A stretch of 64,000 bases of DNA. Origin: Candidatus Poribacteria bacterium (GTDB taxonomy: Bacteria; Poribacteria; WGA-4E; JAJDTR01). Below, piece after piece: positions 25,811-64,000 of the stretch. The translations under genes were made by a program, and so were the position numbers. Where the stretch lies: assembly GCA_965204085.1 (NCBI GenBank), contig CBDBEE010000002.1, positions 840,913-904,912 on the forward strand. Direction: 5' to 3'. The notes under the pieces were generated by a model that was not told where the DNA came from, did not search any database, and was given only the letters and a program-made list of their open reading frames with translations. Numbering within the stretch: the stretch's first letter is position 1; the number at the start of each line of letters is the position of its first letter.

Positions 25811-26252
25811 AGAAAATGTCCCCTTTATGTATGGATAACCAATTTTGGTAATTGTTTAGATCAGTCCAGAACTTACGCGTCAACAGGAAATCGCGACCTG
25901 GAGATCGCTCCTACATTACGCTCAGGGATCTCTATGGGAATTCTATCGCATTCGCTATCCGCTCATTTGATCGCTCACTATCCGTTCGCTTGATGGTGTA
26001 GGAACGGGGATTAAACTGCAGCACGACGAACCAACATTCCCAAAACAGATTGATATACTCAGCACCGGTTAATTTTGGGCAATTGTGCACCGAAGGTTTG
26101 TAGGAGCGATCTCCGAATCGCGACTGTCGGGAATCGGTGGGAACTCCTCCTACCGCCTGCAAAACTCATGCTCCATTTCTTGACTCTTAAAAACGCAACT
26201 TCCAACAGCGTAGAGTATAGACTAAACAATTACCAATCGCGCATAGCCCAAC

Positions 26253-27076: not shown

Positions 27077-28483
27077 CTATCCAGACGACATCGGAAAACC
27101 GGCGGGGCGTGTATAAGGCAGATACTTTGTCTGTCCCCACGACATTCCATCTTGGCTCAAGCCATCCCGCCGCGGATCTACGAACCGGGAAAACCAGTCA
27201 TCCAACATTCCGTCCAGTTCCTTGATTCGGTCGCTTTGCGCCTCATCTTCTGCCAGATTCTGCCGCTCATCGGGATCGGACACAAGGTGGTACAGCTCGT
27301 GGGGGCCGTGACTGTGTCGGTAGGTGTATTTCCACTCTTGAGTGCGAACCATCCGCACGGGGCCATATTCGTCGTAGACCACTACCTGTTCGGCGCCATC
27401 AGATGGTCTGCCTTCCAATGCTGGTAGAAAGCTGCTGCCAGGTAGATTTCGATCTTCCGGTACGGGCAGGTCGAGGTATTCCAAGAGTGTCGGCATGAAG
27501 TCGTAGGAGCTAATCATCGAGTCGTTGACATCCCCTAGAGGGATGCGACCGGGGTGGCTGAAGATAGCGGGAACTTTAATGGAATTCTCGTACATGTTGC
27601 GCGGCATCGTCGCGTTCCCTTTTCCCCAAAATCCGTGATGTCCACACGAAAAGCCGTTATCGCTTAGGAACACAACAAGCGTATTATCGCGTAAACCGAG
27701 TTCCTCTAGTCTGTCGAGGATACGACCGATGTTTTGGTCCATAGCAGTCACTGCGGCAAAGTAACCCTTCAGCGCCTCTCGGTTGCCGAGCGCATCGTCC
27801 GTAAAGACATTACTGCCTACCCCAGCCCATGGATGACGCGGCTCTTGCGGACAGGTCTCGAACAGGCAATCGTCATAAGAGTCGACGATAGATTGAGGGT
27901 GTTCATTCACCCACGGATCGTGGGGGGCAGTGTAATGAACACTCAAGTAGAACGGATGACCGTGATCGGCATATCTGTCCAGTATCTCCAGTCCCTCGTC
28001 GGTAATAGCATCCGTTAGGTACCTCGGCTCGTTTAGGAGTTGACCGTTTTTCACCATGGGCGCATCGTGGTAGTGCCCGCCACCCAACTGATGAGCATAC
28101 CAATCGGTGAAACCGTGTTGCGGTATCTGGCTGTCACCCAAATGCCACTTGCCGGATAGACCACAAGTCCAGCCGTGTCGCGCCATGATGTCCGTGTACC
28201 CTACCTCACCCTCTAAATAACGGATGGCGTCAGGACCGACATTTCCATCCCGAATCCAGTCGTGCACGCCGTGTTGAGACGGAATACGCCCTGTCAACAG
28301 GGTCGCGCGACTCGCCGAGCAGACAGGAGATGCAACGAAAAAATTGCTGAACCTGATCCCCGAATTGGCTAAGCGGTCGAGATTGGGCGTGCGTATTTCA
28401 GGATTGCCGCAGCAACCCGCCGCCCATGATCCCTGGTCGTCGCTCAGAATAAAGAGAACGTTCGTTTTGTCTGCGTTACTCAA
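27077..28483 (-). CDS. arylsulfatase (formylglycine-dependent sulfatase family)
   Basis: Sulfatase signature SPVCSASRATLLTGR (C-x-A-S-R). 468 aa. Confidence 0.9.
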   Translation of the reverse strand: MSNADKTNVLFILSDDQGSWAAGCCGNPEIRTPNLDRLANSGIRFSNFFVASPVCSASRATLLTGRIPSQHGVHDWIRDGNVGPDAIRYLEGEVGYTDIMARHGWTCGLSGKWHLGDSQIPQHGFTDWYAHQLGGGHYHDAPMVKNGQLLNEPRYLTDAITDEGLEILDRYADHGHPFYLSVHYTAPHDPWVNEHPQSIVDSYDDCLFETCPQEPRHPWAGVGSNVFTDDALGNREALKGYFAAVTAMDQNIGRILDRLEELGLRDNTLVVFLSDNGFSCGHHGFWGKGNATMPRNMYENSIKVPAIFSHPGRIPLGDVNDSMISSYDFMPTLLEYLDLPVPEDRNLPGSSFLPALEGRPSDGAEQVVVYDEYGPVRMVRTQEWKYTYRHSHGPHELYHLVSDPDERQNLAEDEAQSDRIKELDGMLDDWFSRFVDPRRDGLSQDGMSWGQTKYLPYTRPAGFPMSSG

Positions 28484-29585
28484 ATTGCCACCTCGTGGTT
28501 AACAGCTAGCGGTTAGTGAATCCTTCATAAGAATCACGTAATTGTTTAGTCCATCGGTCTGGATTTGCCAATCCAGACCGAGCGGGGCAGGGAACGCGCC
28601 GAGTAGGGAAGTACAATGCTAATTCCGGCTAATCGGGGCTTACATGCCCAGACCGGACGTGCAACGAACTGTAATACTACGAACCAAACGATGCACTAAA
28701 CAGTTACAGAATCATGTTGCCGTTAAAAGCGAAATCGGAAAATCGACTGGTTTCTTAGGGCTTGTTTGAAAGTTCTCGGTACGACCCAAAAACGTCATTA
28801 GGTCATCTTGAGAAATTTCATACTTTTCATACCAAATCGAGGTTTTCAGTAGACGTGGAATAAGGGCTTGACACCTTGCTATGACTGGATTTTAAGTGGT
28901 TTTGTCACTATAGCTATTTAAGCAGAGGTATGAAATCCTAGATGTTATCCAAGACAATTTCAGTTGACACATTGGCGCTATTCTCATTAGATAAGTTGGC
29001 TCTCCAAAGAGGTGCCAAAGAGGTGCTAGAATACTGAACATTTGTATTAAGACTAAAGTAACGTATTTGCTAAACGGGGAAGGGTTTCGTACACTTGTCA
29101 TGGTAGCTTAAAGCTACAATCAATCAACAACGTCTTTACCGTTTAAAATTAACGCAAGTTGACACCTAATCGTTAATAGTTGGATTTGCATTTTTCTGGG
29201 TGTTGTATCGCAGTCCCGCTCGGCTTGGATAGACATATCCAAGCCGTACCTGCATGTGTGCAGTGGATTTGTCAATCCACTGCGAGCAAGTTGAGTAGAT
29301 TTTGCTTACATTGCCCCGATTTGCGACGTATCCCATTAGACGGTCGGGCTAGAAGCCTGGGGGATTTCTATCGCGCTCCTTATTCAGTCAGTTGATCACT
29401 CATTGTTCACTCGCTTGATCCCCGCTGGGGCTTAGGCACGGGGCTTCGGAGTTTCTACACACCTTCAAGATCTCCCCTCGGTCGCGAGTTCTTATCACGA
29501 GTAGAACTTGCTTCTACAAAAGATACGCAGCAAACAGTGTTTCGACAGATGGAACTGTCTAGTCCCAAATGTAAAATCCCTAGCT

Positions 29586-29679
29586 ATACCGTACGCTGTT
29601 AGAAATTGCGCTTTTCAAGATTTAAGGTTTGCTTCGCCGATTGTAGAAACTGTGCCAAGGGAACGAATATTGAATGGGG
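29586..29679 (+). repeat. conserved 94-nt noncoding element, copy 2
   Basis: About 90% identical to 15011-15104. Confidence 0.6.
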
Positions 29680-29716
29680 TAATGTCGGCAGTGAGATCTC
29701 TATCGATCAACCGATA

Positions 29717-29800
29717 ACACTCGACATTGCGCTCCGCTGGAGCGCGGAGATTGGGCGCATCACGATTCTATTGACATTGCACTCCTCCGGAGTGCAAGAG
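29717..29800 (+). repeat. hairpin-pair module (gcgctccgctggagcgc ... ttgacat ... gcactcctccggagtgc)
   Basis: It is homologous to the two units at 63434-63806, and the hairpin stems show compensatory substitutions. Confidence 0.55.
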
Positions 29801-30379
29801 CTTGATCTCCTTATTCAGTCACTTGATTTATTCGCTGGTTTGATGGGATTTCTATCGCCTTGGGATCTCTATCGCAGTCACTGTTCGTTCCATTGATCCT
29901 ACAAAATAAGCAATTCTCAGCAGCGTGGAGTATAATGGGCTATAGAAAACAAAATTGGCTCTTCAGAGTTAAGTGTGGAAAATGAAATTATCTTGGGGCA
30001 TGTTGACATTTATGTAAGGCGTATCCATAATTCGCCGATAAGTCCCTATCGTAGGGGCGAGGTTTCCTCGCCCAACGGGTTGGGGAACCCAACCCCTACG
30101 GAAATTGCCTCAATGTAGGGGCAACCACAAGGGTTGCCCAACATACTGCCTCAAGTGAATCAATATTGGCTTAATTTTCAAATGTCAACAGAACCTAGGA
30201 CTTACGCAGTCGAGTGCTCAAATGCACCTTCGTGTAGCAAGTTCCATTCCCACACTTGACCCTGAAGAACCACAAAATTTACATTACGTGTCAAGGACGG
30301 CGTAAAACGAAATCTCCTGCCATTCCAATCCTTCTCATCCCAGTCGCCTTAGACGAAAAACTTTAATGCTAAAACGTGC

Positions 30380-31546
30380 TCAAAACCTCCCTGCACCTAT
30401 TTGGCGGAGGGCATCCCAAAACATGGCTTCCGACATTACATGTTCATCGGTGTATATTCCAAAACCGTCCGAACCCGCTTCGATCATCGCCTTCGCCGCG
30501 TCGACAGTTTTCTTCACCAGGTCTCGCACCGGTATTCCGCCGCCGCCGTTCTTCCCGAGCACGGTGCCGTAAATCTCGCATCTCTCCCCGACAACTTCTT
30601 TCACCGCGGCAATCTCTTTCTTGATTCTAGCCGAATCCACGTACCATGATCCGGTGTCGCTGTTCGGGTAGCTTAGCGGATAATGCGGATCTATAATCCA
30701 AAACCTTGGGTGTAATGCGTCAACCAACCCCTCGTCAACCCAGGTGGTCCAGTCTAACATCAGTTTGTAAGCACCGTCCGGGTCAGCCCAAACCCCTTCG
30801 GTGGCAACCGAGATTTCAACCTTTCTGCCCAGACCTGAAAGCTCCTCCCTCAGTTCTCTCATAAGTTGAGTGTAGTAGCTCGCACGCAAGCGCGTCCACG
30901 CTTTGTCGTCATTGTCAATTTTGCGCGGGTCGACTCCATGGGCTTCGGTGTAGTCTGAAATAGCGGGGGCGTCATATCCCAATGGCCACACCTCCTCGCC
31001 CTCCGCCAAAACGTGCACAAATTCCAACTGCACGCCGTCTGCACCAAATTCTCGCGAATATGTCACTAGGGCGGCTATGACATATTCTCGAACCTCGGGA
31101 TAAGCCAGAGACATGTAGCCAATGTCGTAGCCCAAAACCTGTTCCCCGACCTCCCAGTCAAGCCAGCTTCTTCCGTCTCGCCCTTTGGACATATACTCCG
31201 GATTTTCAGCCGCAAATCGGGGTATCCTGCCATCGGGAATGATGCGTCGCGGTACCGTTCGACGTGAACCCGTCCACACGCCTGCGATAGCCACAAGCGT
31301 GTACGGATGTACTTCAACACCCACTTGATGCGCCTCTTGGCAGAGATTTCGAAGCAGTTCTCGCGACTCACCGCCCGGATATTTCCCGTAGAATTCAATA
31401 TCCGCCGCCCCCGGAGGTCTGCGGCACCGTATCCACTCATGGCTTTTCAGCACCCCTTCGTAGAAGGTGGAAATGATTTGGTGTACCCCGATCTCTGCAC
31501 ATTTCGCGGGCGGCCAACTTGGGTTAACGATGGCTATATCAATCAT
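30380..31546 (-). CDS. hypothetical protein, possibly a glycoside-hydrolase-like TIM-barrel (GHL-type)
   Basis: 388 aa with no signal peptide and only weak family resemblance. Confidence 0.35.
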   Translation of the reverse strand: MIDIAIVNPSWPPAKCAEIGVHQIISTFYEGVLKSHEWIRCRRPPGAADIEFYGKYPGGESRELLRNLCQEAHQVGVEVHPYTLVAIAGVWTGSRRTVPRRIIPDGRIPRFAAENPEYMSKGRDGRSWLDWEVGEQVLGYDIGYMSLAYPEVREYVIAALVTYSREFGADGVQLEFVHVLAEGEEVWPLGYDAPAISDYTEAHGVDPRKIDNDDKAWTRLRASYYTQLMRELREELSGLGRKVEISVATEGVWADPDGAYKLMLDWTTWVDEGLVDALHPRFWIIDPHYPLSYPNSDTGSWYVDSARIKKEIAAVKEVVGERCEIYGTVLGKNGGGGIPVRDLVKKTVDAAKAMIEAGSDGFGIYTDEHVMSEAMFWDALRQIGAGRF

Positions 31547-34527: not shown

Positions 34528-35702
34528 TTGTGAACGTTGCCAAAATTTGGATTATACACCGATCTGTGCACCTTGTAAAGCGATTTCAGCAGCAATCCAT
34601 CGCACCCGGTCCCCGATAACCGACAGCACACGACTATCGATTTTCGTTCGCGGTCTCCCCTTTGCGTACCAGGCTCATAGTGCTAGAATGCGTTGTTCAG
34701 CCTCTCTGTCGGAGCGACCTCCTGGTCGCGACAAAACCGAGTTTTTTCCTCGCCCGCGCAGTTCCACCTTCGGTCATCAAATCGAAGATGCAATTTCCAA
34801 GTCTTGAATATTGAATTGCTAGGGGAAACGCATCTATACCTTGCGTTGGGTAATATTGCGCTTGTTTTCGCAGCACTAACGTCTCGCGATTCGGAGATCG
34901 GAGGGATCTCAATCAGGATCTACTATGGGATAGCTATCAGGATTGGCTATGGGATCCCTATCGTCCTCGTTATTCACTCACTTGATCGCTCATTATCCAT
35001 TCGCTTGAGGGATCTCTATGGGATTTCTATCGCCCTCGTTATTCACTCGGTTGATCCTTCCTTATCCAGTCAGTTGATCCTGCCGTTTATGGGGTGTTTT
35101 GGTGATTGTCTGAATCACGGATTTTCACTGATTAAACGGATTACACGGATTACGGGATCTCTATCGCGCTCCTTATCCAGTCGCTTGATCCTTCTGTTGA
35201 GTAAAATTGAGCTTGTTTCCTCGACAATTATGGTTTTTAATACGACTTACGCGGCGCCAGCAGGTCGCGATTGGGAGATGGGATCTCTATGGTCGTATAG
35301 AGGCGATCACAATCTAACAGATTGTGGTACAGAAATCTATGATCCCACTTGATCGTGGCTGCTACTCTACCAGACGCTCGAAAACACGCAATTTTCAGCA
35401 GCGTGAAGTATAATTATAGAGGATGTCTCATGGCGGTAGAATGTACGATTAATGTTGGGTTTCACTCGAATTTTGGCACGTTCAGGCAAAGCGGGAACTC
35501 GAAAACTCCTCTAAGATTGGCGATTATTAACGAATTCCGTTCAACCCAACCTACGACTGCGATGCGATTTCCAAGTCTTGATGATTGAATTGCCTTGACG
35601 CACTTCATCACTCCTTGATAAAATGCGAACTTAACGCGCTGCTCTGGAGCAACTTGCCCATTGGGGGCGCAGTAAAATCAACGGCGAGAAAAGAGAAAAA
35701 CT
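34528..35702. repeat. 1.2-kb repeat-rich noncoding island
   Basis: It contains arrays of 12-nt GGATCTCTATCG-like units and 22-nt ...TTATCCAGTCGCTTGATCC-like units, the gatgcRatttccaagtcttga repeat (two copies), and the ttcagcagcgtgaagtataa motif. Confidence 0.5.
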
Positions 35703-37612: not shown

Positions 37613-40600
37613 ATGAAAAAATCCCTGTTTGTCATGTTTATCCATTTATTCATTTCTGTCCTGTTTTTGCAGAACAGTTTCGCGCAGGAATATACACGAT
37701 GGGGGCTGCCGGAGGGCGCTACGGCGCGCCTGGGAAAAGGTGGAATAAATGAAATCGCGTTTTCGCCGGACGGGTCACAGTTTGCAGTGGCAAGTAGTAT
37801 CGGCATCTGGCTCTATGACCCGAACACCGGCACTGAAGTCACCCTCCTCACCGGGCATACGTCCTCTGTCAATTGTGTAGCCTTCAGTCCAGATGGGAAG
37901 ACTATCGCCAGTGGGAGTTCCGACGATACCATCCGTTTGTGGGATGCTACCACTGGAGTTCATAGGCAATCACTTACCGTCCATAACTCTATTGTCAATA
38001 GCCTAGCCTTCAGCCCGGATGGGAAAACTATTGCCAGTGGGAATGGTTCCATCACAGGTGAAGATAACACAATCCGTATGTGGGACGCCGTTACTGGAAA
38101 ACTTAAGCAGACAATCTCCGGGCACGCAGACATAGTTACTAGTGTCGTCTTTAGTTCCGATGGCAGTGCACTTGCAAGTCAGACTTTCGGTTTCGACAAA
38201 CAGATTCATATCTGGAATGCTTACACAGCCGACCTCAAGTGGAGGTCAAGCTTGCCTGAGTATTCGGTCCGTAGCATCGCTATAAGCCCCGATTGGTACA
38301 CAGTTGCAAGCGGGAGTAGTGACGGAACAATCCGTCTGTGGGATGTTGTCACGGGAGCACATAAGACGACGCTTGCCGGGCATACGGATCCGGTCAATAT
38401 CATTGTCTATAGCCCGGATGGACTTACAATCGCCAGTGGCGGTTTCGACGGTACAATCAGGCTGTGGAATGTCGCCACGGGAGCACAAAAGGCGACGCTT
38501 GCCGGGCATACGAGTTGGATTGACCACATCGCCTTCAGCCCGGACAGTAATACGATTGCTAGTGGAAGTGACGACAGAACCATGCGGCTGTGGGATGTTA
38601 CCACTGGAGCACAAAAATGGATCGTCCACGAGCATACGGATTCGATAAACAGCATCGCCTATAACCCGGATGGACGTACAATCGCCAGTGGTGGTTTCGA
38701 CGGCACCATCCGGTTATGGAAAGTTGCTATGGGCGAGGTCAAGCGAAGTTTCGGGTTTGGGTACGGAGTCGCTCTGAGCCCAGACGGGCGCACAATTGCA
38801 AGTCAAGTTATTGACGAGATTTTTCTGTGGGACGCAAGCACAGGAGCACAAAAGCAAGTTCTCACCGGGCATACAGATCGCGTTCAAAGCATCGCATTCA
38901 GCACGGATGGGCGCACAATCGCCAGCGGGAGTCAGGATAAAACCATCCGGCTATGGGATGTCGCCACGGGAGTACAAAAGCGAGTTCTCACCGGGCATAC
39001 AGATCACGTTCAAAGTATCGCATTCAGTCCCGATGGGAATATGCTTGCCAGTGGGAGTTGGGACCATACCATCCGCCTATGGAATGTCCTGACGGGCAGA
39101 AACAAGCACACGCTCACAGGTCATACAGCTTTCGTCAACTGTGTCGCATTCAGTCCCGATGGGATCGTGCTTGCCAGTGGGAGTGACGACATTCGCCTAT
39201 GGGAGGCCGACACGGGGGCGCACAAGCGAACGCTCACCGGGACGAGATCGGTCGGGAGCCTAGCTTTCAGCCCGGATGGGGATACAATCGCTAGTGGAGG
39301 TTCGGGCGGTACTATCCAACTGTGGGATGCTCTTACATGTACTAAGAAGCGCACATTCACTGGTCATACATATCGGGTCAACAGTGTGGTTTTCAGTCCA
39401 GATGGAAACACAATTGCCAGCGGGAGTGAAGACGGGACAATTCTGATGTGGAACCCGCTTCCTGATCCAAGTGTAATCGTTACGGAGCGCGGGTTTGACA
39501 ACTATAGTCTGGGGCCCGCTCAGCAGGGACTGCCTGATGGTGCTAAGGCGCGGCTTGGTAAGGGTTCGGCATCTAAGATTGCATATTCTCCAGATGGAAC
39601 ACGTCTTGCTGTCGCGAGTAGCATTGGGATTTGGCTCTATGATGTCCACAGCGAGAGCGAAGTCGACCTTCTGACCGGGCATACACATCGTGTCTCTAGC
39701 GTAGCGTTCAGCCCGGATGGGAGCACAATCGCTAGCAGCAGTAATGGGATTCGTGACAATACCATCCGTCTATGGGATGCTGTCACGGGGGAACACAAGC
39801 TGACACTAGTCGGGCATACAGATGCGGTCATTAGTGTTGCTTTCAACCCGGACGGTGGTACGATTGCCAGTGGAAGTGATGACAATACCATTAGGATGTG
39901 GGACACTATCACAGGCGTACACAAGCTGACGCTCACGGGGCATTCTAGCAACGTTAGCAGCGTAACGTTCAGCCCAGATGGAAGGACCATTGCCAGTGGA
40001 AGTGATGACAAGACCATTAGAATGTGGGACACTATCACAGGCGCACACAAGTTGAGACTCACCGGTCATACGGATTGGGTGACTAGTGTCCTCTTCAGCC
40101 TAGACGGTAGCACAATTATCAGCGCCAGTAGAGACAAGACAATCCGTCTGTGGGATGCTACCTCAGGCGCACACAAGCTAACACTAGCCGGGCATACAGA
40201 CCCAGTCATTTGTGTCGCCTTCAACCCGGATGGGAGTATGATCGCCAGTGGGGGTTTGGACAAGACCCTCCGACTGTGGGATGCTACCTCAGGCGCACAC
40301 AAGTTGACACTCACCGGCCATACGGATTGGGTGACTAGTGTCCTCTTCAGCCCAGACGGTAGCACAATTATCAGCGCCAGTAGAGACAGGACAATCCGTC
40401 TGTGGGATCTTCTCAAAGGCACCGATAAGATATTCGCTCGGGACAAGATGAAGGCCAATAGTGTTACCTTCAGCCCAGATGGGAGAACACTTGCCACTGG
40501 AAATCACGACAATACAGTCCGATTGTGGGATACCGTCACAGGCGGACACAAACAGACGCTCACCTGGCACACCGATGAGGTCACTAGTCTCGCCTATAGC

Positions 40601-41299
40601 CCAGACGGCGACACGCTTGCCAGTGGTAGTAAGGATTATACCATCTGTCTGTGGGATGCCGTCACAGGCAAACATAAGCGGACACTTACTGGACATACGT
40701 TTAATGTAAATAGCATTGCGTTTAGCCCGGATGGCAGGATTCTGGCTAGCACGAGTAATGATAATACTATCTATTTGTGGGACGTTCCGACAGGTACACT
40801 CAAGCACACTCTTATTGGGCATACGAATTGGGTTACTGCCGTTGCGTTCAGCCCAGATGAGAAAACACTTGCCAGTGCGAGCTACGACACCACCGTGCGG
40901 CTGTGGGACTCCGTCATGGGCAAATTCAAGCGGACATTCACCGGTTATAATCTTGCAGTCCGGAGTGTTGCCTTCAGTCCAGATGGGAGAACACTTGCCA
41001 CTGGAAGTGGCGACAATGTCCGATTGTGCGACGCCATTACGGGCATGCACAAGCGGATCCTCGCCGGACATACGAATTGGATCGATAGTGTCGCGTACAG
41101 CCCTGATGGGCATACGCTCGCCAGTGGCAGTTGGGACCATACCATCCGACTATGGGACACCATCACAGGTACTCACAAGCAGACCCTCGCCGGACACACA
41201 GATTCGGTTGTGGGGCTCGCATTCAGCCCGGATGGAACCACGCTCGCCAGTTGTAGTGAGGATGGTACGATTCTATTGTGGGATGTGACCGCCGAATAA
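37613..41299 (+). CDS. WD40 repeat protein (about 28 repeats, two homologous halves), secreted
   Basis: Signal peptide. Reiterated GHTxxVxSVAFSPDGxTIASGSxDxTIRLWD units. The N-terminal block GLPEGATARLGKGGINEIAFSPDG reappears at about residue 630. Confidence 0.9.
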   Translation: MKKSLFVMFIHLFISVLFLQNSFAQEYTRWGLPEGATARLGKGGINEIAFSPDGSQFAVASSIGIWLYDPNTGTEVTLLTGHTSSVNCVAFSPDGKTIASGSSDDTIRLWDATTGVHRQSLTVHNSIVNSLAFSPDGKTIASGNGSITGEDNTIRMWDAVTGKLKQTISGHADIVTSVVFSSDGSALASQTFGFDKQIHIWNAYTADLKWRSSLPEYSVRSIAISPDWYTVASGSSDGTIRLWDVVTGAHKTTLAGHTDPVNIIVYSPDGLTIASGGFDGTIRLWNVATGAQKATLAGHTSWIDHIAFSPDSNTIASGSDDRTMRLWDVTTGAQKWIVHEHTDSINSIAYNPDGRTIASGGFDGTIRLWKVAMGEVKRSFGFGYGVALSPDGRTIASQVIDEIFLWDASTGAQKQVLTGHTDRVQSIAFSTDGRTIASGSQDKTIRLWDVATGVQKRVLTGHTDHVQSIAFSPDGNMLASGSWDHTIRLWNVLTGRNKHTLTGHTAFVNCVAFSPDGIVLASGSDDIRLWEADTGAHKRTLTGTRSVGSLAFSPDGDTIASGGSGGTIQLWDALTCTKKRTFTGHTYRVNSVVFSPDGNTIASGSEDGTILMWNPLPDPSVIVTERGFDNYSLGPAQQGLPDGAKARLGKGSASKIAYSPDGTRLAVASSIGIWLYDVHSESEVDLLTGHTHRVSSVAFSPDGSTIASSSNGIRDNTIRLWDAVTGEHKLTLVGHTDAVISVAFNPDGGTIASGSDDNTIRMWDTITGVHKLTLTGHSSNVSSVTFSPDGRTIASGSDDKTIRMWDTITGAHKLRLTGHTDWVTSVLFSLDGSTIISASRDKTIRLWDATSGAHKLTLAGHTDPVICVAFNPDGSMIASGGLDKTLRLWDATSGAHKLTLTGHTDWVTSVLFSPDGSTIISASRDRTIRLWDLLKGTDKIFARDKMKANSVTFSPDGRTLATGNHDNTVRLWDTVTGGHKQTLTWHTDEVTSLAYSPDGDTLASGSKDYTICLWDAVTGKHKRTLTGHTFNVNSIAFSPDGRILASTSNDNTIYLWDVPTGTLKHTLIGHTNWVTAVAFSPDEKTLASASYDTTVRLWDSVMGKFKRTFTGYNLAVRSVAFSPDGRTLATGSGDNVRLCDAITGMHKRILAGHTNWIDSVAYSPDGHTLASGSWDHTIRLWDTITGTHKQTLAGHTDSVVGLAFSPDGTTLASCSEDGTILLWDVTAE

Positions 41300-42626: not shown

Positions 42627-45587
42627 TTGACAACAGAAATCGTATGCACCACCATATTCATGGCGACATTTCTCGCTACCAACAACATAACCTGGAGCGA
42701 GGATAAGGAGATTGTCGGTGAACGCCCCTACGAAATGGAATGGGCAAACCGCACCGAAGACACCTACCCACCTCTAATTGATTTTGAAGACTTGGCAGGA
42801 TGGCGCGTTGAGACCTCTAATGCGACCGCAACTTTCCAACGCTCGCGAGAACAGCAACTCTGGGGGAAATACGTTGCCAAACTCACCTACCGCGCGACGG
42901 AAGCCAATCCCGAAATCCGCATCAGTCCTCCAGCCCCCATACCGATTCAAAACGGCTTTGAGGTGGTCTCCTGCTGGATCTTCGGCAAAGAACGCCATCG
43001 CCCGAAGATTTCCGCGCTGTTCAAAACTTCCGATGGACGCGAGATGCTGTTTTCCATGCGCGCGGATTGGGATAACTGGGGATGGTTTCAATCTTACTAC
43101 CGATTGTCTCCCGATCAAATTGATCTCGTCGCGGACGGTTCCACTTTCACCGGGTTCATCATTCGTGATTCCAACGAACCGGAAGATCGCCTGATCTGCT
43201 TTGACAATCTAGCCGTCTTCACTGAAGACTTCAAACCGCTGTATTTCAAGCCGCGTCCTCGACGCGGCATCCCGATGTTCCCCGGACAAGGAACGGGGAC
43301 GAACACCGGTCCCGGCAAACTCCCGTTTCCAACGCGGAAGGAAACCATTTTGCCCGACAACCTGACAGACGAATTCACGACACACATACAAGCCGAGGGC
43401 GGTGGTTTTACCTTTCGCTATGAGGGCGTGGACGGCACTCTGATTTACCGGCTTGAGCCTCGTACCGGCACGTTGAGTGACATCAGCGCCGAGTGGGTGG
43501 GGCTAGGCGGTCCGATTCAGCCGTGCGTCGGCGGTGGCGTGTATCTGGCGACCAAGGCGGATTCCCCCTCTCCACCTGAGTCCACCGAGCATTTAGGCAC
43601 GGACCTCCAAGATGAGAAGGTCGTCTCGCGATGGCGGCTAAAGGCTAAAGGAGTGACGCAGGACGTAATTTATGTATATCGACTCTGGAACAAATCGCTT
43701 GCAATTGACACGCTTGCCCCCGGTGGGGACGTTGCCGAAGTAAGATACGGAAAGGCTGTCGGCGTGGAGAATCCGCGCCTGGTCGACAATCCGTTTTACA
43801 CCTACAACGGCTACATTCCCGACGGACGTCCGGCGGTTGTCGTCGCCGGTTCGCAAGACGCGCCGCTGTTCCTGACCGGAAACACCGACTGGTACCTATC
43901 CAATGCCTCAATGCTGCTGCCCTCGCCTTCCCTGACGCCCGATGGAGTTGTCTACAACACCGGCACGCGGTATATTCCCAAAACCAACGGCGCGCGGGTT
44001 GATTGTTACGAGCGATTTTTCATCACCGTTTCCCCGCGTTACGAGGAGATGTTGCCCACTATTCCGAATCCAAAGTCCCCGTGGCTGAGTCATGTGGGCA
44101 CCCGGCTCTGGAAAGCGCATCAGTCCGAAAATCCGCGAGCAGACGGGATACGCTTTTTCAGAAAACTGCACCGGTACGGGATAACCGAAATGACAATCAC
44201 CGACCATGAAGGCGGATGGCGCGACGGAGGTGAAAGTTTTACGTTTCGAACCCGCGGCGCACCTGAAAAGGGGGGCGACGAAGGATGGGCGGAATATTCC
44301 CGCGTTCTACGGGACGACATCGGTTACATTTACGGTCCTTACACGCAGTTCCTTGATATCGCAGCCGTCAATGAATACTGGGACACCGACATCATCACGC
44401 GAACCCCCGACAATCGGATGCACGGGGGCTGGCGCCGTTGTTACCGAGCCAAGCCCGCCCGATCCCCGGAATATTGCGAGTTGCTGTCGCCAATCATCAA
44501 AGAAAATTTCGGATTCAACGCGAGCTACCTAGACGTGCATACACTCCACACCCTGGATTTTGTAGATTACGACTACCGTGTGCCCGGCGCCGCGACCTTT
44601 GCTGCAACCTTCTACGCCTACGGAGAAACCATGCTGATTCAAAAGCAAATATACAACGGACCGGTATTCTCGGAGGGTGGTCACCAATTCATCTTTAGCG
44701 GCCTGATTGATGGGAACTACGCTCAGGACCGTGCGGGCAAAGTGAAGTTGGCTTGGGGACCGTGGTTGGTGGATTTTGAACTTCGGAAAACTCACGATTT
44801 GTGTGCCAATATCGCAATGGGAGAGTACGGCATGTTCTACCGGGGAGAGGAGCCGGAACCAAGTGGTCGCTCGGGTGAAGATCCGCGTAGTGACCGGCAC
44901 ATTGCCGCGACCATCGCGTTCGGTCACGTCGGCATCCTCCAATACGAAGACCCGCTTCCGCGCATGATGCGAATCTACTACATGCTACAGCAATTGCAGA
45001 GCCGCTATGCGATGTCTAGCGTGGCGGAAATACGGTATGCGGACGCGGACGGAAATCTCTTGGATACCACTGCCGCCGTGGCATCCGGCGCCTACAAACG
45101 CTCACAGATCGTGACCCGTTACCGGAGCGGGTGCATCACCGTGGTAAACGGCAATGCAAATGACGAATACATGGCGGTAAACGCCTACGGAAGGCGCGTA
45201 ACACTGCCTCCGAACGGTTATGCTGGCTGGACCGAAGATGGAGCGATTGAGATTTTTAGCGGCGAGATTCACGGTCACCGCGCTGATTACGCAGTGACAC
45301 CCGAATATATCTTCATTGATGGGCGTAGTAAATCAACGCGATTCCCCAAAGCGGAAGGAAATGGAGTAGGAATCTGCCGCATTCGTCCGGATTGGAAATA
45401 CGAGGTAATTCTGTTTGACGGCTCCGATTGCGGTTTCGCGATCGAAGCAAATCAAGCCGTGGCGCTAGACGAAGAAAGAAATGAGATTGGAACGACAACA
45501 CTGCGCGAGTCTGACCGTTTCATCTACGTAGAGCAAGTGCCGGGCGCCTTCAGCTACTTGCTCAGCACCGACAACTCCTCAAAATAA
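42627..45587 (+). CDS. large hypothetical protein of unknown function (about 986 aa)
   Basis: A long ORF with no recognisable motif. The likely TTG start at 42627 is preceded by GGAGG, since the annotated upstream portion overlaps the hairpin element. The N-terminus is hydrophobic. Confidence 0.5.
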   Translation: MTTEIVCTTIFMATFLATNNITWSEDKEIVGERPYEMEWANRTEDTYPPLIDFEDLAGWRVETSNATATFQRSREQQLWGKYVAKLTYRATEANPEIRISPPAPIPIQNGFEVVSCWIFGKERHRPKISALFKTSDGREMLFSMRADWDNWGWFQSYYRLSPDQIDLVADGSTFTGFIIRDSNEPEDRLICFDNLAVFTEDFKPLYFKPRPRRGIPMFPGQGTGTNTGPGKLPFPTRKETILPDNLTDEFTTHIQAEGGGFTFRYEGVDGTLIYRLEPRTGTLSDISAEWVGLGGPIQPCVGGGVYLATKADSPSPPESTEHLGTDLQDEKVVSRWRLKAKGVTQDVIYVYRLWNKSLAIDTLAPGGDVAEVRYGKAVGVENPRLVDNPFYTYNGYIPDGRPAVVVAGSQDAPLFLTGNTDWYLSNASMLLPSPSLTPDGVVYNTGTRYIPKTNGARVDCYERFFITVSPRYEEMLPTIPNPKSPWLSHVGTRLWKAHQSENPRADGIRFFRKLHRYGITEMTITDHEGGWRDGGESFTFRTRGAPEKGGDEGWAEYSRVLRDDIGYIYGPYTQFLDIAAVNEYWDTDIITRTPDNRMHGGWRRCYRAKPARSPEYCELLSPIIKENFGFNASYLDVHTLHTLDFVDYDYRVPGAATFAATFYAYGETMLIQKQIYNGPVFSEGGHQFIFSGLIDGNYAQDRAGKVKLAWGPWLVDFELRKTHDLCANIAMGEYGMFYRGEEPEPSGRSGEDPRSDRHIAATIAFGHVGILQYEDPLPRMMRIYYMLQQLQSRYAMSSVAEIRYADADGNLLDTTAAVASGAYKRSQIVTRYRSGCITVVNGNANDEYMAVNAYGRRVTLPPNGYAGWTEDGAIEIFSGEIHGHRADYAVTPEYIFIDGRSKSTRFPKAEGNGVGICRIRPDWKYEVILFDGSDCGFAIEANQAVALDEERNEIGTTTLRESDRFIYVEQVPGAFSYLLSTDNSSK

Positions 45588-45603
45588 CCTAAGAATCACT
45601 GTA

Positions 45604-45635
45604 GAAACCGAGTTTTTCCCCCAAAACTCGGTTTC
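45604..45635. terminator. hairpin gaaaccgagtttt-loop-aaaactcggtttc immediately after the stop of the large unknown ORF
   Basis: 13-bp stem with a 7-nt loop. It is a short-loop member of the same inverted-repeat family. Confidence 0.5.
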
Positions 45636-45871
45636 TTGAAATATCCCCACTAACTTATTTTACCATTTCTATAAAATGGAAGTGCATTGATTACGTGGAT
45701 TAAGTAAAGAAACTTGCTTGGAACTGAACAACAAGCCTCGTCTCTGCGCGAAGTCCGCGGGGCAAGGGGATCTCTATCGCATTCGCTATTCGCTCATTTG
45801 ATTCCCGCCTACGGAAAAAGTGGACGATACCATTCAGACATCATATGCACTATTATTCAAGCGAAATGGTA

Positions 45872-46333
45872 TTACCTGTACTCACCACCGTAAAATATCA
45901 ACGGCTCTCCATCGCGTACCTCTCCGGCGACCGGCTCGCCAACGAACATGTCGTGATCGCCGCCGGAAAGAATTTCAACCAGTTTGCAATCCACAAAAGC
46001 AATCGCATCAACCAAAATGGGGGCGCCGGTTTCTGCCGCGGTTATCGATAATCCGGAAAAATCTTTTGGGCCTGAGATAGCGAATCGACGCGAAATCTCT
46101 TCCTGGTCTGCGCGCAACATATTCAGAGCAAAGCACTTGCCTTGAATCAGGCACTCGTGCATGGAGTTCTTCTTGTCAACGGAGACAACAACAAGAGGCG
46201 GCTCGAGCGAAAGAGACATCACGGCGTTCGCCGTCATACCCAAAACTCCTTCGTCAAACCGCGTCGTCAGCAATGTGACGCCAGTTGCAAAACGACCCAT
46301 GACCTGCCGTTGCAGCATTGAATCAATCGCCAT
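45872..46333 (-). CDS. flavin reductase-like (FMN-binding split-barrel) protein
   Basis: GMTANAVMSLSLEPPLVVVSV pattern typical of Flavin_Reduct domains. Confidence 0.8.
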   Translation of the reverse strand: MAIDSMLQRQVMGRFATGVTLLTTRFDEGVLGMTANAVMSLSLEPPLVVVSVDKKNSMHECLIQGKCFALNMLRADQEEISRRFAISGPKDFSGLSITAAETGAPILVDAIAFVDCKLVEILSGGDHDMFVGEPVAGEVRDGEPLIFYGGEYR

Positions 46334-60658: not shown

Positions 60659-60793
60659 CGAGTGCGATAGGAAATTCCGCGCGATAGAGCTCCCATAGAG
60701 ATCCCACAGGTAGGTAGCAGCCGAGAATGAAACATGGAATAAATTTCTACAAATGAACAAAAATGGCTGTGCCACCGATTATTCAAACAGGCT

Positions 60794-62431: not shown

Positions 62432-63349
62432 TTAACCCATCTTCATAGCAGTTTTCCGAATCAAATCGACATGATGAAGTTCCGATTTGCCGCCATGCGG
62501 TTGTAACCGGTCTATTCTGTCAATTGCCGCGCTGCTGCGAATGAGAGTAATGCCTGTATTTGTGTAGCCCTCTCCGCAATCCAGTCGTCGCGACATCTCG
62601 TTTTTCTCTCCGTCCGTCATTTCGTTCCACTCTTTCGTGCCCATAAATCTACCGTTTTGGTCGAAGAACAGCCCTCCTTTGTCGACCACCGTTTCAGGCA
62701 CTTTGCCGCAAAGCGTAACTTCTGCCCCTTCGATGAAATGTGAAACGAGTGTCCGCAGATAAATGGCTTGGTTGAGAAACGGCTCATCTCCAAACGCGAT
62801 ACCAATCCACTCAGCACCGGATTCCTGAACGGCGGGAATTGCCGCTTGTAGCGCACCTCCGGTACCGTTCTGTTCAGGTTGCACACAGAGGATAACATTT
62901 GGGCCGCACAACCGATTGACTGCGTCCATGTCAAGCGCGGATGAAGAAATGATGCCATCAAGTGTTATTCTGGTCGTCACTAGACGCTCCGCCATCATGG
63001 GATTAATGACAATGATATGCGGACGAGTGCCGGGGAGATAGCTGCGAGATACTTGCAACGTATTGTATTCACCGAACCACAGATCCAGTGTCTTGTTAAG
63101 TCGCCCTGAGGGATCAATTCGAGTACCTTGTCCGCCCGCCAGAATCACCCACTGCGGATCGAGCCACTGTGCAAGATCGTGCTCAACGTCTTGATTCGCA
63201 ACTGTGTCCAGAAACTGGTCAATTCGTCTTTCGGCCCGCCCTTTGTCCGAAATGCCGAGAGCAGTCGCCAGATTACATCGAAGAATCGTTTCAACGGCGC
63301 GACGGATAGTAGTGAGATTGTTGTGCATTCTATTTGAGTGACCAACCAA
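62432..63349 (-). CDS. sugar-phosphate nucleotidyltransferase domain (NTP_transferase), N-terminal part of a split bifunctional gene
   Basis: ILAGGQGTRI nucleotide-binding motif. It stops at 62432 directly beside an A5 run, and the hexapeptide-repeat domain continues downstream in a different frame. Confidence 0.65.
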   Translation of the reverse strand: MVGHSNRMHNNLTTIRRAVETILRCNLATALGISDKGRAERRIDQFLDTVANQDVEHDLAQWLDPQWVILAGGQGTRIDPSGRLNKTLDLWFGEYNTLQVSRSYLPGTRPHIIVINPMMAERLVTTRITLDGIISSSALDMDAVNRLCGPNVILCVQPEQNGTGGALQAAIPAVQESGAEWIGIAFGDEPFLNQAIYLRTLVSHFIEGAEVTLCGKVPETVVDKGGLFFDQNGRFMGTKEWNEMTDGEKNEMSRRLDCGEGYTNTGITLIRSSAAIDRIDRLQPHGGKSELHHVDLIRKTAMKMG

Positions 63350-63433
63350 ATATTCCAGATTTTTAAGATTATGGACTGTCTGAATCTCTATAGCACACCA
63401 TTAGTCCCGTCGGAATGATTTTTTCATCAAATG

Positions 63434-63806
63434 ACACTCGACATTGCGCTCCGCTGGAGCGCGGAGATTAGGCGCATCACGATTCTATTGACATAGCACT
63501 CCGCTGGAGTGAAAACCCTTCTACGAAGGAACACCTTCTCAAAACCTGTCATAGAGCGAAAAATGAGTGTTACTTGCTGAAAGAATCATTCCGACAGGGA
63601 TAATGGGGTGCTTTCAAGTAACACTCGACATTGCACTCCTCTGGAGTGCAGACGCGGGGAGGGATCGTGTTCTATTGACATCTCACTCCTCTGGAGTGAA
63701 TCCATTCTACGAAGGAACGCTTTTTCAAAACCTGTCATAGAGCGAAAAATGAGTGTTACTTGCTGAAAGAATTATTCCGACAGGGATAATGGCGTGCTAT
63801 ACACCT
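63434..63806 (+). repeat. tandem direct repeat, two copies of about 187 bp, each holding a hairpin-pair module plus a 12-bp-stem stem-loop
   Basis: Unit A runs 63434-63620 and unit B 63621-63806. The hairpins gcgctccgctggagcgc and gcactcctctggagtgc differ by compensatory changes. The stem arms are gagtgttacttg and caagtaacactc. Confidence 0.7.
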
Positions 63807-64000
63807 TCAAGATCTCTATCGCACTAGGAACTCTATCGCCTTCGCTATCCGCTCAGTTGATCTATTCGCTCGTTTGATCCCCTCTGGGGCTTATGATGCT
63901 CATACACATAGAAGAGAGAAAATTGGTGATTAGGTGATTGCAGAGAAGATTCCTTCACTTCTAGAATCAGGTGCGATTGCCCTAATGAGCATCCTTTTGC

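Follow-up and report, generated by a model that had tools for sequence, protein, structure and literature searches.

A hairpin array at positions 63427 to 63800 of a 64,000-nucleotide stretch of Candidatus Poribacteria DNA (contig CBDBEE010000002.1 of assembly GCA_965204085.1; the whole stretch is termed the window) was found to be part of a dispersed, modular repeat family. Its hairpins are probably repetitive extragenic palindromic (REP)-type sequences, forming a cluster like the bacterial interspersed mosaic elements (BIMEs), that are selfish or domesticated and are paired with a gene for a Y1 transposase as a REPtron. This assignment was made because inverted hairpins flank the Y1 gene and because the repeat types follow the Y1 groups. 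The array in the window is a mosaic of two hairpin pairs joined by two linker modules, T and S, and is comparable to the BIMEs of Escherichia coli. It does not appear to regulate the neighbouring nucleotidyltransferase gene, next to which its position seems incidental; no link between the array and this gene was found.

The hairpin sites of this family have a common form, in which GACAT is followed by one or two nucleotides and then by a 6- to 8-bp stem around a 3-nt loop (about 23 to 28 nt in total). The leader of these sites is (C)TAT[A/T]GACAT or, in the first hairpin (H1) of composite elements, CACTCGACAT. The sites usually occur as direct pairs, H1 and then H2, 50 nt apart. Within the window array, two units of 187 nt (63427-63613 and 63614-63800) are arranged head to tail, each with two hairpins whose starts lie 50 nt apart. 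The four sites start at 63440, 63490, 63627 and 63677, and the start-to-start spacing along the array (50, 137 and 50 nt) gives the period of 187 nt. A solo pair was detected at 29723 and 29773. When the window was searched with the degenerate site pattern GACATNNCRCTCCNCTGGAGYG, six matches were found compared to 0.02 expected. The original prediction, made from the sequence of the window, had described the two head-to-tail units, the leader CTATTGACAT before each second hairpin and a third half-unit near 29717-29800, and all of these were confirmed.

We found that the stems of the hairpins vary on both arms at once. The H1 stem is GCGCTCC…GGAGCGC in the first unit and GCACTCC…GGAGTGC in the second, such that the change of G:C to A:T is compensated on both arms. 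Among fixed-pattern matches, the corresponding purine/pyrimidine (R/Y) position was occupied by A-T in 243 cases, G-C in 71 and G-T in 3, with 4 mismatches; the compensation pointed out in the original prediction is real and general. To avoid circularity, sites were also picked by leader alone (CTAT[A/T]GACAT or the composite H1 leader), which gave 324 sites, 239 of them distinct. An intact hairpin, with at least 6 of 7 stem pairs, was present in 205 of these 239 sites, and 17 further sites were visibly interrupted by another repeat. Covariation was scored on a random sample of 150 of the 239 distinct sites, with 500 shuffles and slid controls. By this approach, 85.9% of cells were paired compared to 75.9% after shuffling, and double-change cells numbered 104 compared to 38. 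The covariation score was 0.258 compared to 0.145 for the shuffled sites; it was reached by none of the 500 shuffles, and the slid controls scored 0.113 or less. Changes on both sides were observed at all seven stem pairs, often at three or more. Stem variants found with their exact complement were GCACTCC, GCGCTCC, TCACTCC, TCGCTCC, CCGCTCC, CGCCCC, TTGCTCC, GTGCTCC and GCACCCC. Since hundreds of copies, with several stem variants among them, keep the pairing, the structure of the hairpin, and not its sequence alone, is under constraint. Random variation among many copies had been named beforehand as the mark of a plain MITE (miniature inverted-repeat transposable element). Many copies do exist, but their variation is compensatory, and the pattern is therefore a REP-type signature rather than that of a plain decaying MITE.

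The dispersal of the family was examined with one genome per species and a pattern of two hairpins 22 to 34 nt apart, in which the R/Y pair and the loop were left free. At least 114 stretches carried this pattern and, among the matches listed, nearly all were metagenome-assembled genomes (MAGs) of Candidatus Poribacteria, with 21 loci on the single chromosome OZ242354.1. In the 954 kb examined, only 22 of 340 sites fell inside open reading frames (ORFs) of at least 120 amino acids, though 70% of the bases did. BLAST comparison of unit 1 to the loci (numbered with the prefix L) revealed a modular family, with the hairpin pair present about 200 to 240 times, T about 100 times and S about 140 times. 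The S module was recovered in 91 copies that spanned at least S positions 6 to 44, 90 of which were distinct. Most sites are simple pairs. Composites of the order S-H1-H2-T-S recur either alone or as short tandem series, whose period is 187, 238 or 324 nt. The composites were divided equally between sense and antisense orientation relative to flanking genes (13 of each), and 3 of 37 composite arrays lay between divergent genes. Hairpin pairs without S were antisense in 26 cases and sense in 8, an excess that may reflect a replication-strand bias. The original prediction had treated the array as a local element upstream of the nucleotidyltransferase gene, a view that does not hold, as the same module lies beside unrelated genes in many genomes. 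A similar CTMYCAAG motif marks both ends of the elements, but the two copies that an element carries usually differ; a search for a target-site duplication at these ends found none, and no inverted S modules flanking a gene were detected when sought. A classical DDE-transposon MITE, with terminal inverted repeats and a target-site duplication, was considered and rejected, given that the CTMYCAAG end copies usually differ and that no inverted S pairs flank genes.

A few matches were also noted in MAGs labelled Acidobacteriota/Blastocatellia (L022, L051 and L060), one of them on a 340-kb scaffold. No Y1 gene was found in these three loci. The Acidobacteriota-labelled copies could be due to horizontal spread between sponge symbionts or to mis-binning.

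A Y1 transposase gene was found to be framed by the hairpins at a number of loci. In the layout that recurs at loci with sites on both strands, two minus-strand sites come first, then a gap of 490 to 700 bp and then two plus-strand sites, and the gap encodes a protein of 155 to 160 amino acids. Inverted hairpin pairs flank a Y1 ORF in this manner in L002, L033, L050, L052, L070, L092, L095 (twice) and L102, and the Y1 gene of L078 has hairpin sites downstream only. At L002, the order is H2'-H1'-22 nt-ATG…TAA-H1-H2, with the leaders facing the gene from both sides and a total length of about 670 bp. When the 156 ORFs that lay no more than 250 bp from a hairpin were compared, Y1 was the sole family to recur across genomes (9 ORFs in 7 loci). 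The protein matches Pfam Y1_Tnp (PF01797) with an E value of 1.5e-26 and NCBIfam transpos_IS200 (NF033573) with 76 bits compared to a cut-off of 55, and is thus named an IS200/IS605 family transposase. The nearest solved structures are the transposases (TnpA) of ISDra2 and IS608, with which the HUH motif (DHIH) and the catalytic tyrosine (YI..Q) were aligned. All Poribacteria copies share the motifs PDHIHIL, WQEGF and YI(E/D)(N/D)QE(K/I)HH.

The association was also detected in the reverse direction, by use of two Y1 homologues chosen by protein similarity alone. The first of these, P0014 (L115), was found to have eight minus-strand and at least three plus-strand hairpin sites on its flanks. 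The second, P0034 (L119), was flanked by inverted arrays with a 51-nt period, and its locus retained the same gene neighbourhood in six assemblies. Most exact Y1 proteins were present on only 1 to 4 contigs. Within the small sample compared, each genome clade has its own leader, stem and loop types, and these track the Y1 identity groups. The two Y1 genes of L095 are flanked by arrays of the window's own type, in which CTATTGACAT is followed by TGCACTCC or TCACTCC stems; the hairpins of both have the TATTGACAT leader together with GCACTCC and TCACTCC stems. An unusually large cluster was seen where L052 and L102 adjoin (CBDCUX010000005.1, 2424001-2440000). These 16 kb hold about five Y1 copies or fragments, one copy being interrupted by the ORF of a 336-aa DDE-type transposase, and upward of 50 hairpin sites, which form long arrays whose spacings alternate between about 47 to 50 nt and 97 nt.

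We also compared the two units of the window array to each other and to copies elsewhere. The units agree at 93% of positions over their right-hand 100 nt (63513-63612 and 63699-63798, spaced 186 apart) and at only 76% (56/74) over their hairpin halves. This low identity of the hairpin halves is why the 187-nt array in the window was missed by Tandem Repeats Finder. The hairpin region of unit 1 is 97% identical to copies at L053, L040 and L099, and that of unit 2 is 98.6% identical to copies at L071 and L011. The solo pair at 29723 matches the hairpin region of unit 1 at 68 of 73 positions (93%). Because the units are only 76% alike and yet each is 97 to 98.6% identical to copies in other genomes, the array is best described, from these identities, as two subfamily members that lie side by side and share T and S, with no fresh local duplication. 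The term tandem duplication, used in the original prediction, is therefore misleading, as the hairpin pairs are of different subfamilies and each is closer to copies of other species.

Gain and loss of the composites were examined at an orthologous region. No relative of the nucleotidyltransferase locus was found among metagenome contigs and, therefore, the empty-site comparison was made between window positions 45560-45900 and L053. Genes of the window are about 85% identical to those of CBDDPW01 (L053), the genome that also carries the two L095 Y1 genes. The orthologous intergenic region contains two composites in L053 and none in the window; thus, gain or loss of composites takes place over the time in which species diverge. 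Repeats that are 97 to 99% identical where genes are about 85% identical mean that the family is either still active or being homogenised, and the repeats could serve as markers of genome dynamics in Poribacteria symbionts.

Within unit 1 of the window array (all features on the plus strand unless stated otherwise), H1 spans 63440-63462 and reads GACAT-T-GCGCTCC-GCT-GGAGCGC, with stem arms at 63446-63452 and 63456-63462 around a GCT loop; this stem type is also present in other genomes. Spacer type A (GGAGATTAGGCGCATCACGATT) follows at 63463-63484 and is conserved in many copies elsewhere and, therefore, is not a unique spacer. H2 (63485-63512) has the form CTATTGACAT-AG-CACTCC-GCT-GGAGTG, with arms at 63497-63502 and 63506-63511 and then a conserved A-rich tail. 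The T module (63513-63564; …CTTCTACGAAGGAAC…AAAACCTGTCATAGAGCGAAAAAT) is kept in about half of hairpin-pair copies. In unit 2, H1 (63627-63650) reads GACAT-TGCACTCC-TCT-GGAGTGCA, with arms at 63632-63639 and 63643-63650. It is followed by spacer type B (GACGCGGGGAGGGATCGTGTT; 63651-63671), which is common to many copies in other genomes and is identical to type A at 16 of 28 positions. H2 of unit 2 (63672-63699) has the form CTATTGACAT-C-TCACTCC-TCT-GGAGTGA, with arms at 63683-63689 and 63693-63699 and a TCT loop, and the second T module (63700-63750) is 93% identical to that of unit 1. The solo pair (29717-29797) has neither T nor S and consists of AACACTC, H1 (GACAT at 29723, then GCGCTCC-GCT-GGAGCGC), a type A spacer and H2 (leader CTATTGACAT at 29768-29777, then TGCACTCC-TCC-GGAGTGCA).

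The S module at the junction of the units is a 62-nt stem-loop (63565-63626). Its outer stem of 12 bp is formed by 63565-63576 (GAGTGTTACTTG) with 63615-63626 (CAAGTAACACTC), and its 3' arm doubles as the left terminus of unit 2; an inner hairpin pairs 63585-63592 with 63597-63604. The 12-bp junction stem of the original prediction was recovered with 100% complementarity; among the copies of S, this outer stem showed no compensatory change, only one-sided variation, and is thus without covariation support. Its pair 7/54 is G·T in 18 of 51 copies, and the remaining variation gave mismatches. The inner 8-bp hairpin showed a few compensatory double changes, and its pair 25/34 is T·G in 51 of 81 copies. 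The terminal S module (63751-63800; …GGCGTGCTAT) lacks the 3' arm and forms the right end of the array, at the same place as the right ends of elements at other loci. To the left, a degenerate, partial and inverted S module (63381-63439) forms the left arm of a 48- to 59-nt inverted repeat, pairs with the S modules at 63565-63612 and 63751-63809 (80% and 83% complementary, respectively) and terminates in CAAATGACACTC, which is a variant form of CAAGTAACACTC, the terminus most often seen on the left; this inverted repeat had been overlooked in the original prediction. In minimum-energy folds, the whole region is closed by the pairing of 63381-63439 with the S modules. No such inverted S pair was seen at other loci when sought. 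The S modules also contain, at 63577-63604 and 63763-63790, a weak sigma-70-like match (CTGAAA, 16 nt, GATAAT; 9/12). The two sigma-70-like matches found in the region compare to 1.2 expected and are within chance.

The array ends near 63809, at the start of a copy from a second dispersed repeat family that is no part of the hairpin module, and does not extend past the edge of the window as had been suggested. The copy of this second family that adjoins the array and marks its end (GATCTCTATCGC…TTGATCC, then the half hairpin CCCCTCTGGGGC) spans 63809-63893 and contains a 17-nt sub-repeat at 63845-63879. Members of the family are 36 to 100 nt in length, start with [A/G]GGAT[C/T]T[C/A]CTATCGC, end in …TTGA and have the sub-repeats CTATCGC and TATTC..TC..TTGATC. 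The family motif GGGATCTCTATCGC was matched 16 times in the window compared to 0.4 expected. Sites in the window include 25925-25949, 29361-29430, 29845-29900, 34951-35033, 35154-35167, 35280-35293, 45767-45805, 60681-60705 (minus strand) and 63809-63893, and the family was also seen in L016, L031, L006 and L095 (3760-3870). At other loci, the second-family element separates the CAC from the TCC of the 5' arm in GACAT hairpins, and it interrupts the 17 of 239 distinct leader-selected sites mentioned above. Two copies in the window are followed by half hairpins (TCCCCGCTGGGGC and TCCCCTCTGGGGC). By its placement, the second family resembles a small element with an exact target position within REP hairpins.

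Elsewhere in the window, the ORF at 62432-63349 (minus strand) matches Pfam NTP_transf_3 with 29.6 bits compared to a cut-off of 27, so that its nucleotidyltransferase label is acceptable. The region at 28483-30380, which includes the solo hairpin pair and two second-family copies, is, at 1.9 kb, an unusually long stretch without an ORF of at least 120 amino acids and contains several further inverted repeats (e.g., 28556-28580 and 29215-29245). An ORF of 1228 amino acids (37613-41299) holds, between 38321 and 40408, long runs of tandem repeats of 126 nt (42 codons); this period is that expected of WD40-type repeat proteins.

By analogy to IS608, ISDra2 and the TnpA(REP) of E. coli, the Y1 enzyme would act on single-stranded DNA, where it would bind the hairpin together with its 5' leader and cut nearby. 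Such cleavage could then copy or move hairpin pairs, and selection for recognition by the Y1 enzyme would preserve the pairing of the stems and so account for the compensatory changes. A more specific proposition, for which we judge the chances to be about even, is that Poribacteria harbor a system of the REPtron type in which the driving enzyme is an IS200-class Y1 with subclass 1.2 motifs and the repeats are GACAT-tagged direct pairs built into mosaics of 187 to 238 nt.

Several points weigh against assigning the hairpins to a REP-type system. The binding and cleavage of the hairpins by the Y1 enzyme are taken from other Y1 systems. The Y1 gene is absent from the 64-kb window, and the presence of a cognate enzyme in the same genome is presumed from L095 (CBDDPW01), which belongs to a relative about 85% identical. 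The protein scored 34.9 bits against NCBIfam REP_Tyr_transpos (NF047646), below the cut-off of 80, and no match at an E value of 0.01 or better was obtained to any solved REP-associated transposase. The subclass 1.2 that it resembles was listed as 'REP: no' by Quentin et al. 2018 (PMC6006769). Two to five Y1 copies or fragments are clustered in L052/L102, L095, L050 and L115; in the first three of these places, the clustering looks more like an insertion sequence. Modules T and S were not found beside Y1 genes, which leaves the spread of the composite unexplained. The copies of the hairpins share descent, such that the independent compensatory events are far fewer than the cell counts, and the frequent G·T pairs of the S module also fit a transcribed RNA.

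Of the other explanations, one is that the Y1 gene and hairpins form an active IS200-family insertion sequence (IS), with the dispersed pairs and composites as its non-autonomous deletion derivatives (palindrome-associated MITEs); this differs from the REP-type reading only in whether the enzyme still moves itself, and we consider it unlikely but deserving of attention. It would account for the NCBIfam name and score (76 bits), for ISDra2 and IS608 as the closest solved structures, for the near-identical Y1 copies of L052 (100% and 99%) that lie 4 kb apart, for the copies and fragments in L102, L095 and L050, and for the total length of about 670 bp at L002, which is typical of IS200. The ends of IS200/IS605 elements are, however, described in the literature as asymmetric, with hairpins on one strand, whereas the flanking hairpins of the Poribacteria gene are symmetric, are inverted on both sides and often form long arrays rather than single ends (L095, L115 and L119). 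Mobility of the enzyme also fits poorly with the constant gene neighbourhood of P0034 in six assemblies, with the restriction of most exact proteins to 1 to 4 contigs and with the Y---Q--HH signature, which is that of a subclass described as without insertion-sequence properties (PMC6006769). A further explanation, which we find doubtful, is that the hairpins act as RNA (a small RNA, a 3' stabilizing or terminating structure, or a processing site) and that their spread is secondary. On the strand given here, G·U-compatible pairs of S (25/34 and 7/54) are frequent, RNA folding of the region is far stronger than that of shuffled sequence (z = -9.58), and published work has the REPs of enterobacteria affecting mRNA stability. 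By contrast, the fold as single-stranded DNA is equally exceptional (z = -7.95), and folding alone therefore cannot tell DNA from RNA. An RNA role is likewise at odds with the equal division of composites between sense and antisense and the mostly antisense placement of pairs without S, and it leaves the transposase association unexplained. No Rfam family was matched at gathering thresholds (the only weak match was to the unrelated RAGATH-35, at an E value of 8.8), and scans of the region for promoters and terminators gave no signal above chance. Secondary effects of REP-type hairpins on the stability or termination of neighbouring transcripts are possible.

The original prediction had proposed that the structure is functional as an RNA fold or as a palindromic protein-binding site; the structure is indeed constrained, but a double-stranded operator is unlikely. 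We consider it highly improbable that the palindromes are operators of a dimeric regulator for the nucleotidyltransferase gene and its divergent neighbour, even though 17-bp palindromes lie in a divergent intergenic region and a perfect -35-like TTGACA lies within the H2 leader. No -10 element is present at the right distance, the leader is asymmetric, hundreds of copies lie beside unrelated genes and only 3 of 37 composites are between divergent genes. In addition, several stem variants occur in one genome, always with both arms changed, as needed by pairing and not by a tolerant protein contact. Hardly any weight is given to a degenerate array of clustered regularly interspaced short palindromic repeats (CRISPR), in which a 30-nt repeat with a terminal palindrome would alternate with short spacers. 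The regular period of about 50 nt and the dozen or more sites in L052, L102 and L095 resemble such an array, but the spacers of about 20 nt recur with conserved sequence in different copies and genomes (types A and B; L033 has identical ones), most sites are simple pairs and the Y1 gene is the only recurrent neighbour. A CRISPR array was rejected on the basis of the conserved spacers. For annotation, the elements of this REP-type family should be masked as repeat DNA and not labelled as a riboswitch, operator or CRISPR.

When compared to known systems, the Poribacteria elements resemble the pneumococcal BOX and Neisseria Correia elements as mosaics of intergenic modules that vary in number, with inner modules tandemly reiterated and with partly complementary ends that form long stem-loops. 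BOX and Correia elements are not known to have an associated Y1 transposase or sites composed of a leader plus hairpin. Small size and a Y1 HUH transposase of the same class are shared with IS608, ISDra2 and their palindrome-associated MITEs, and by analogy the Poribacteria hairpins may be recognised as single-stranded DNA, as are the subterminal hairpins of these elements. The Poribacteria protein has the Y1_Tnp domain with HUH and Y---Q motifs expected of IS200/IS605, and its elements lack the asymmetric ends of that family and appear to be low in copy number. By contrast to IS608 and ISDra2, the ends are symmetric, inverted and often multiplied into arrays and there is no tnpB gene; unlike IS200/IS605 MITEs, the dispersed copies are hairpin pairs and not a left end plus a right end.

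The likeness to the REP/BIME elements and REP-associated tyrosine transposases (RAYT; TnpA-REP) of E. coli and Pseudomonas (PMC2817692, PMC3333891, PMC3116915, PMC6006769) is more extensive. Both comprise short extragenic palindromes of high copy number with a conserved 5' tag, compensatory pairing of the stems, several subtypes per genome and clusters with conserved linkers. In both, inverted REPs surround an HUH/Y1 gene, the REP type follows the enzyme clade and the REPs serve as targets for other small insertions. Of the features that define a REP, a stem-loop unit of 20 to 40 nt, high and extragenic copy number and compensatory stems were observed here, and the classical tetranucleotide tag was not; those of a REPtron, inverted flanks (including L115 and L119) and REP types specific to enzyme clades, were observed in relatives of the window genome. 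The tag differs from that of classical REPs, being GACAT (TATAGACAT or TATTGACAT) at 1 to 2 nt from the stem and not GT[AG]G or CGTC. The unit is a direct hairpin pair 50 nt apart, and not inverted or alternating as in BIMEs and the REP doublets forming hairpins (REPINs). Compared to RAYTs, the enzyme has the tyrosine motif Y---Q (YIENQEKHH) rather than Y---NP and falls short of the REP_Tyr_transpos cut-off. The higher-order mosaics and the host phylum, Poribacteria, also depart from the published picture of REP systems. No paper was found that describes REPs, MITEs or a REP-transposase partnership in Poribacteria, and the present analysis documents such a partnership in this phylum of uncultivated sponge symbionts. 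The finding has modest general interest and is useful to specialists of Y1 transposases and for annotation of Poribacteria genomes.

In the classification of Quentin et al. 2018, REP-associated enzymes belong to class 2, with a Y---NP motif and GT[AG]G-tagged REPs, and some subclasses have atypical REPs without GTAG (PMC6006769). Subclass 1.2 was described as IS200-related, without insertion-sequence properties and present in Cyanobacteria and Bacteroidetes, with DH[IV]H, WQ and YIKNQKEHH motifs, a length of about 148 amino acids and a specific C-terminal tail (Table 1, PMC6006769). Bertels et al. 2017 described a 'RAYT-like IS200 Group 3' in which the genes are flanked by 16-mers of high abundance and show no signs of duplication (PMC5581495), which we infer to be the same as subclass 1.2. 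Use of an IS200-class enzyme bears on the question raised in these two studies of whether Y1 transposases were domesticated once or several times, and on the role of IS200-like Y1 enzymes of low copy number. By motif comparison, the Poribacteria Y1 appears to have the subclass 1.2 signature. If the proposed REPtron-type system is real, it would be a living link from IS200 transposons to domesticated RAYT/REPIN systems, and the REP-like partners of subclass 1.2 enzymes may have been overlooked in other phyla. The Poribacteria enzyme shares with subclass 1.2 its motifs, a length of about 150 to 160 amino acids, a short conserved C-terminal tail and an apparently low copy number, and differs in its clear flanking hairpin arrays and its Poribacteria host.

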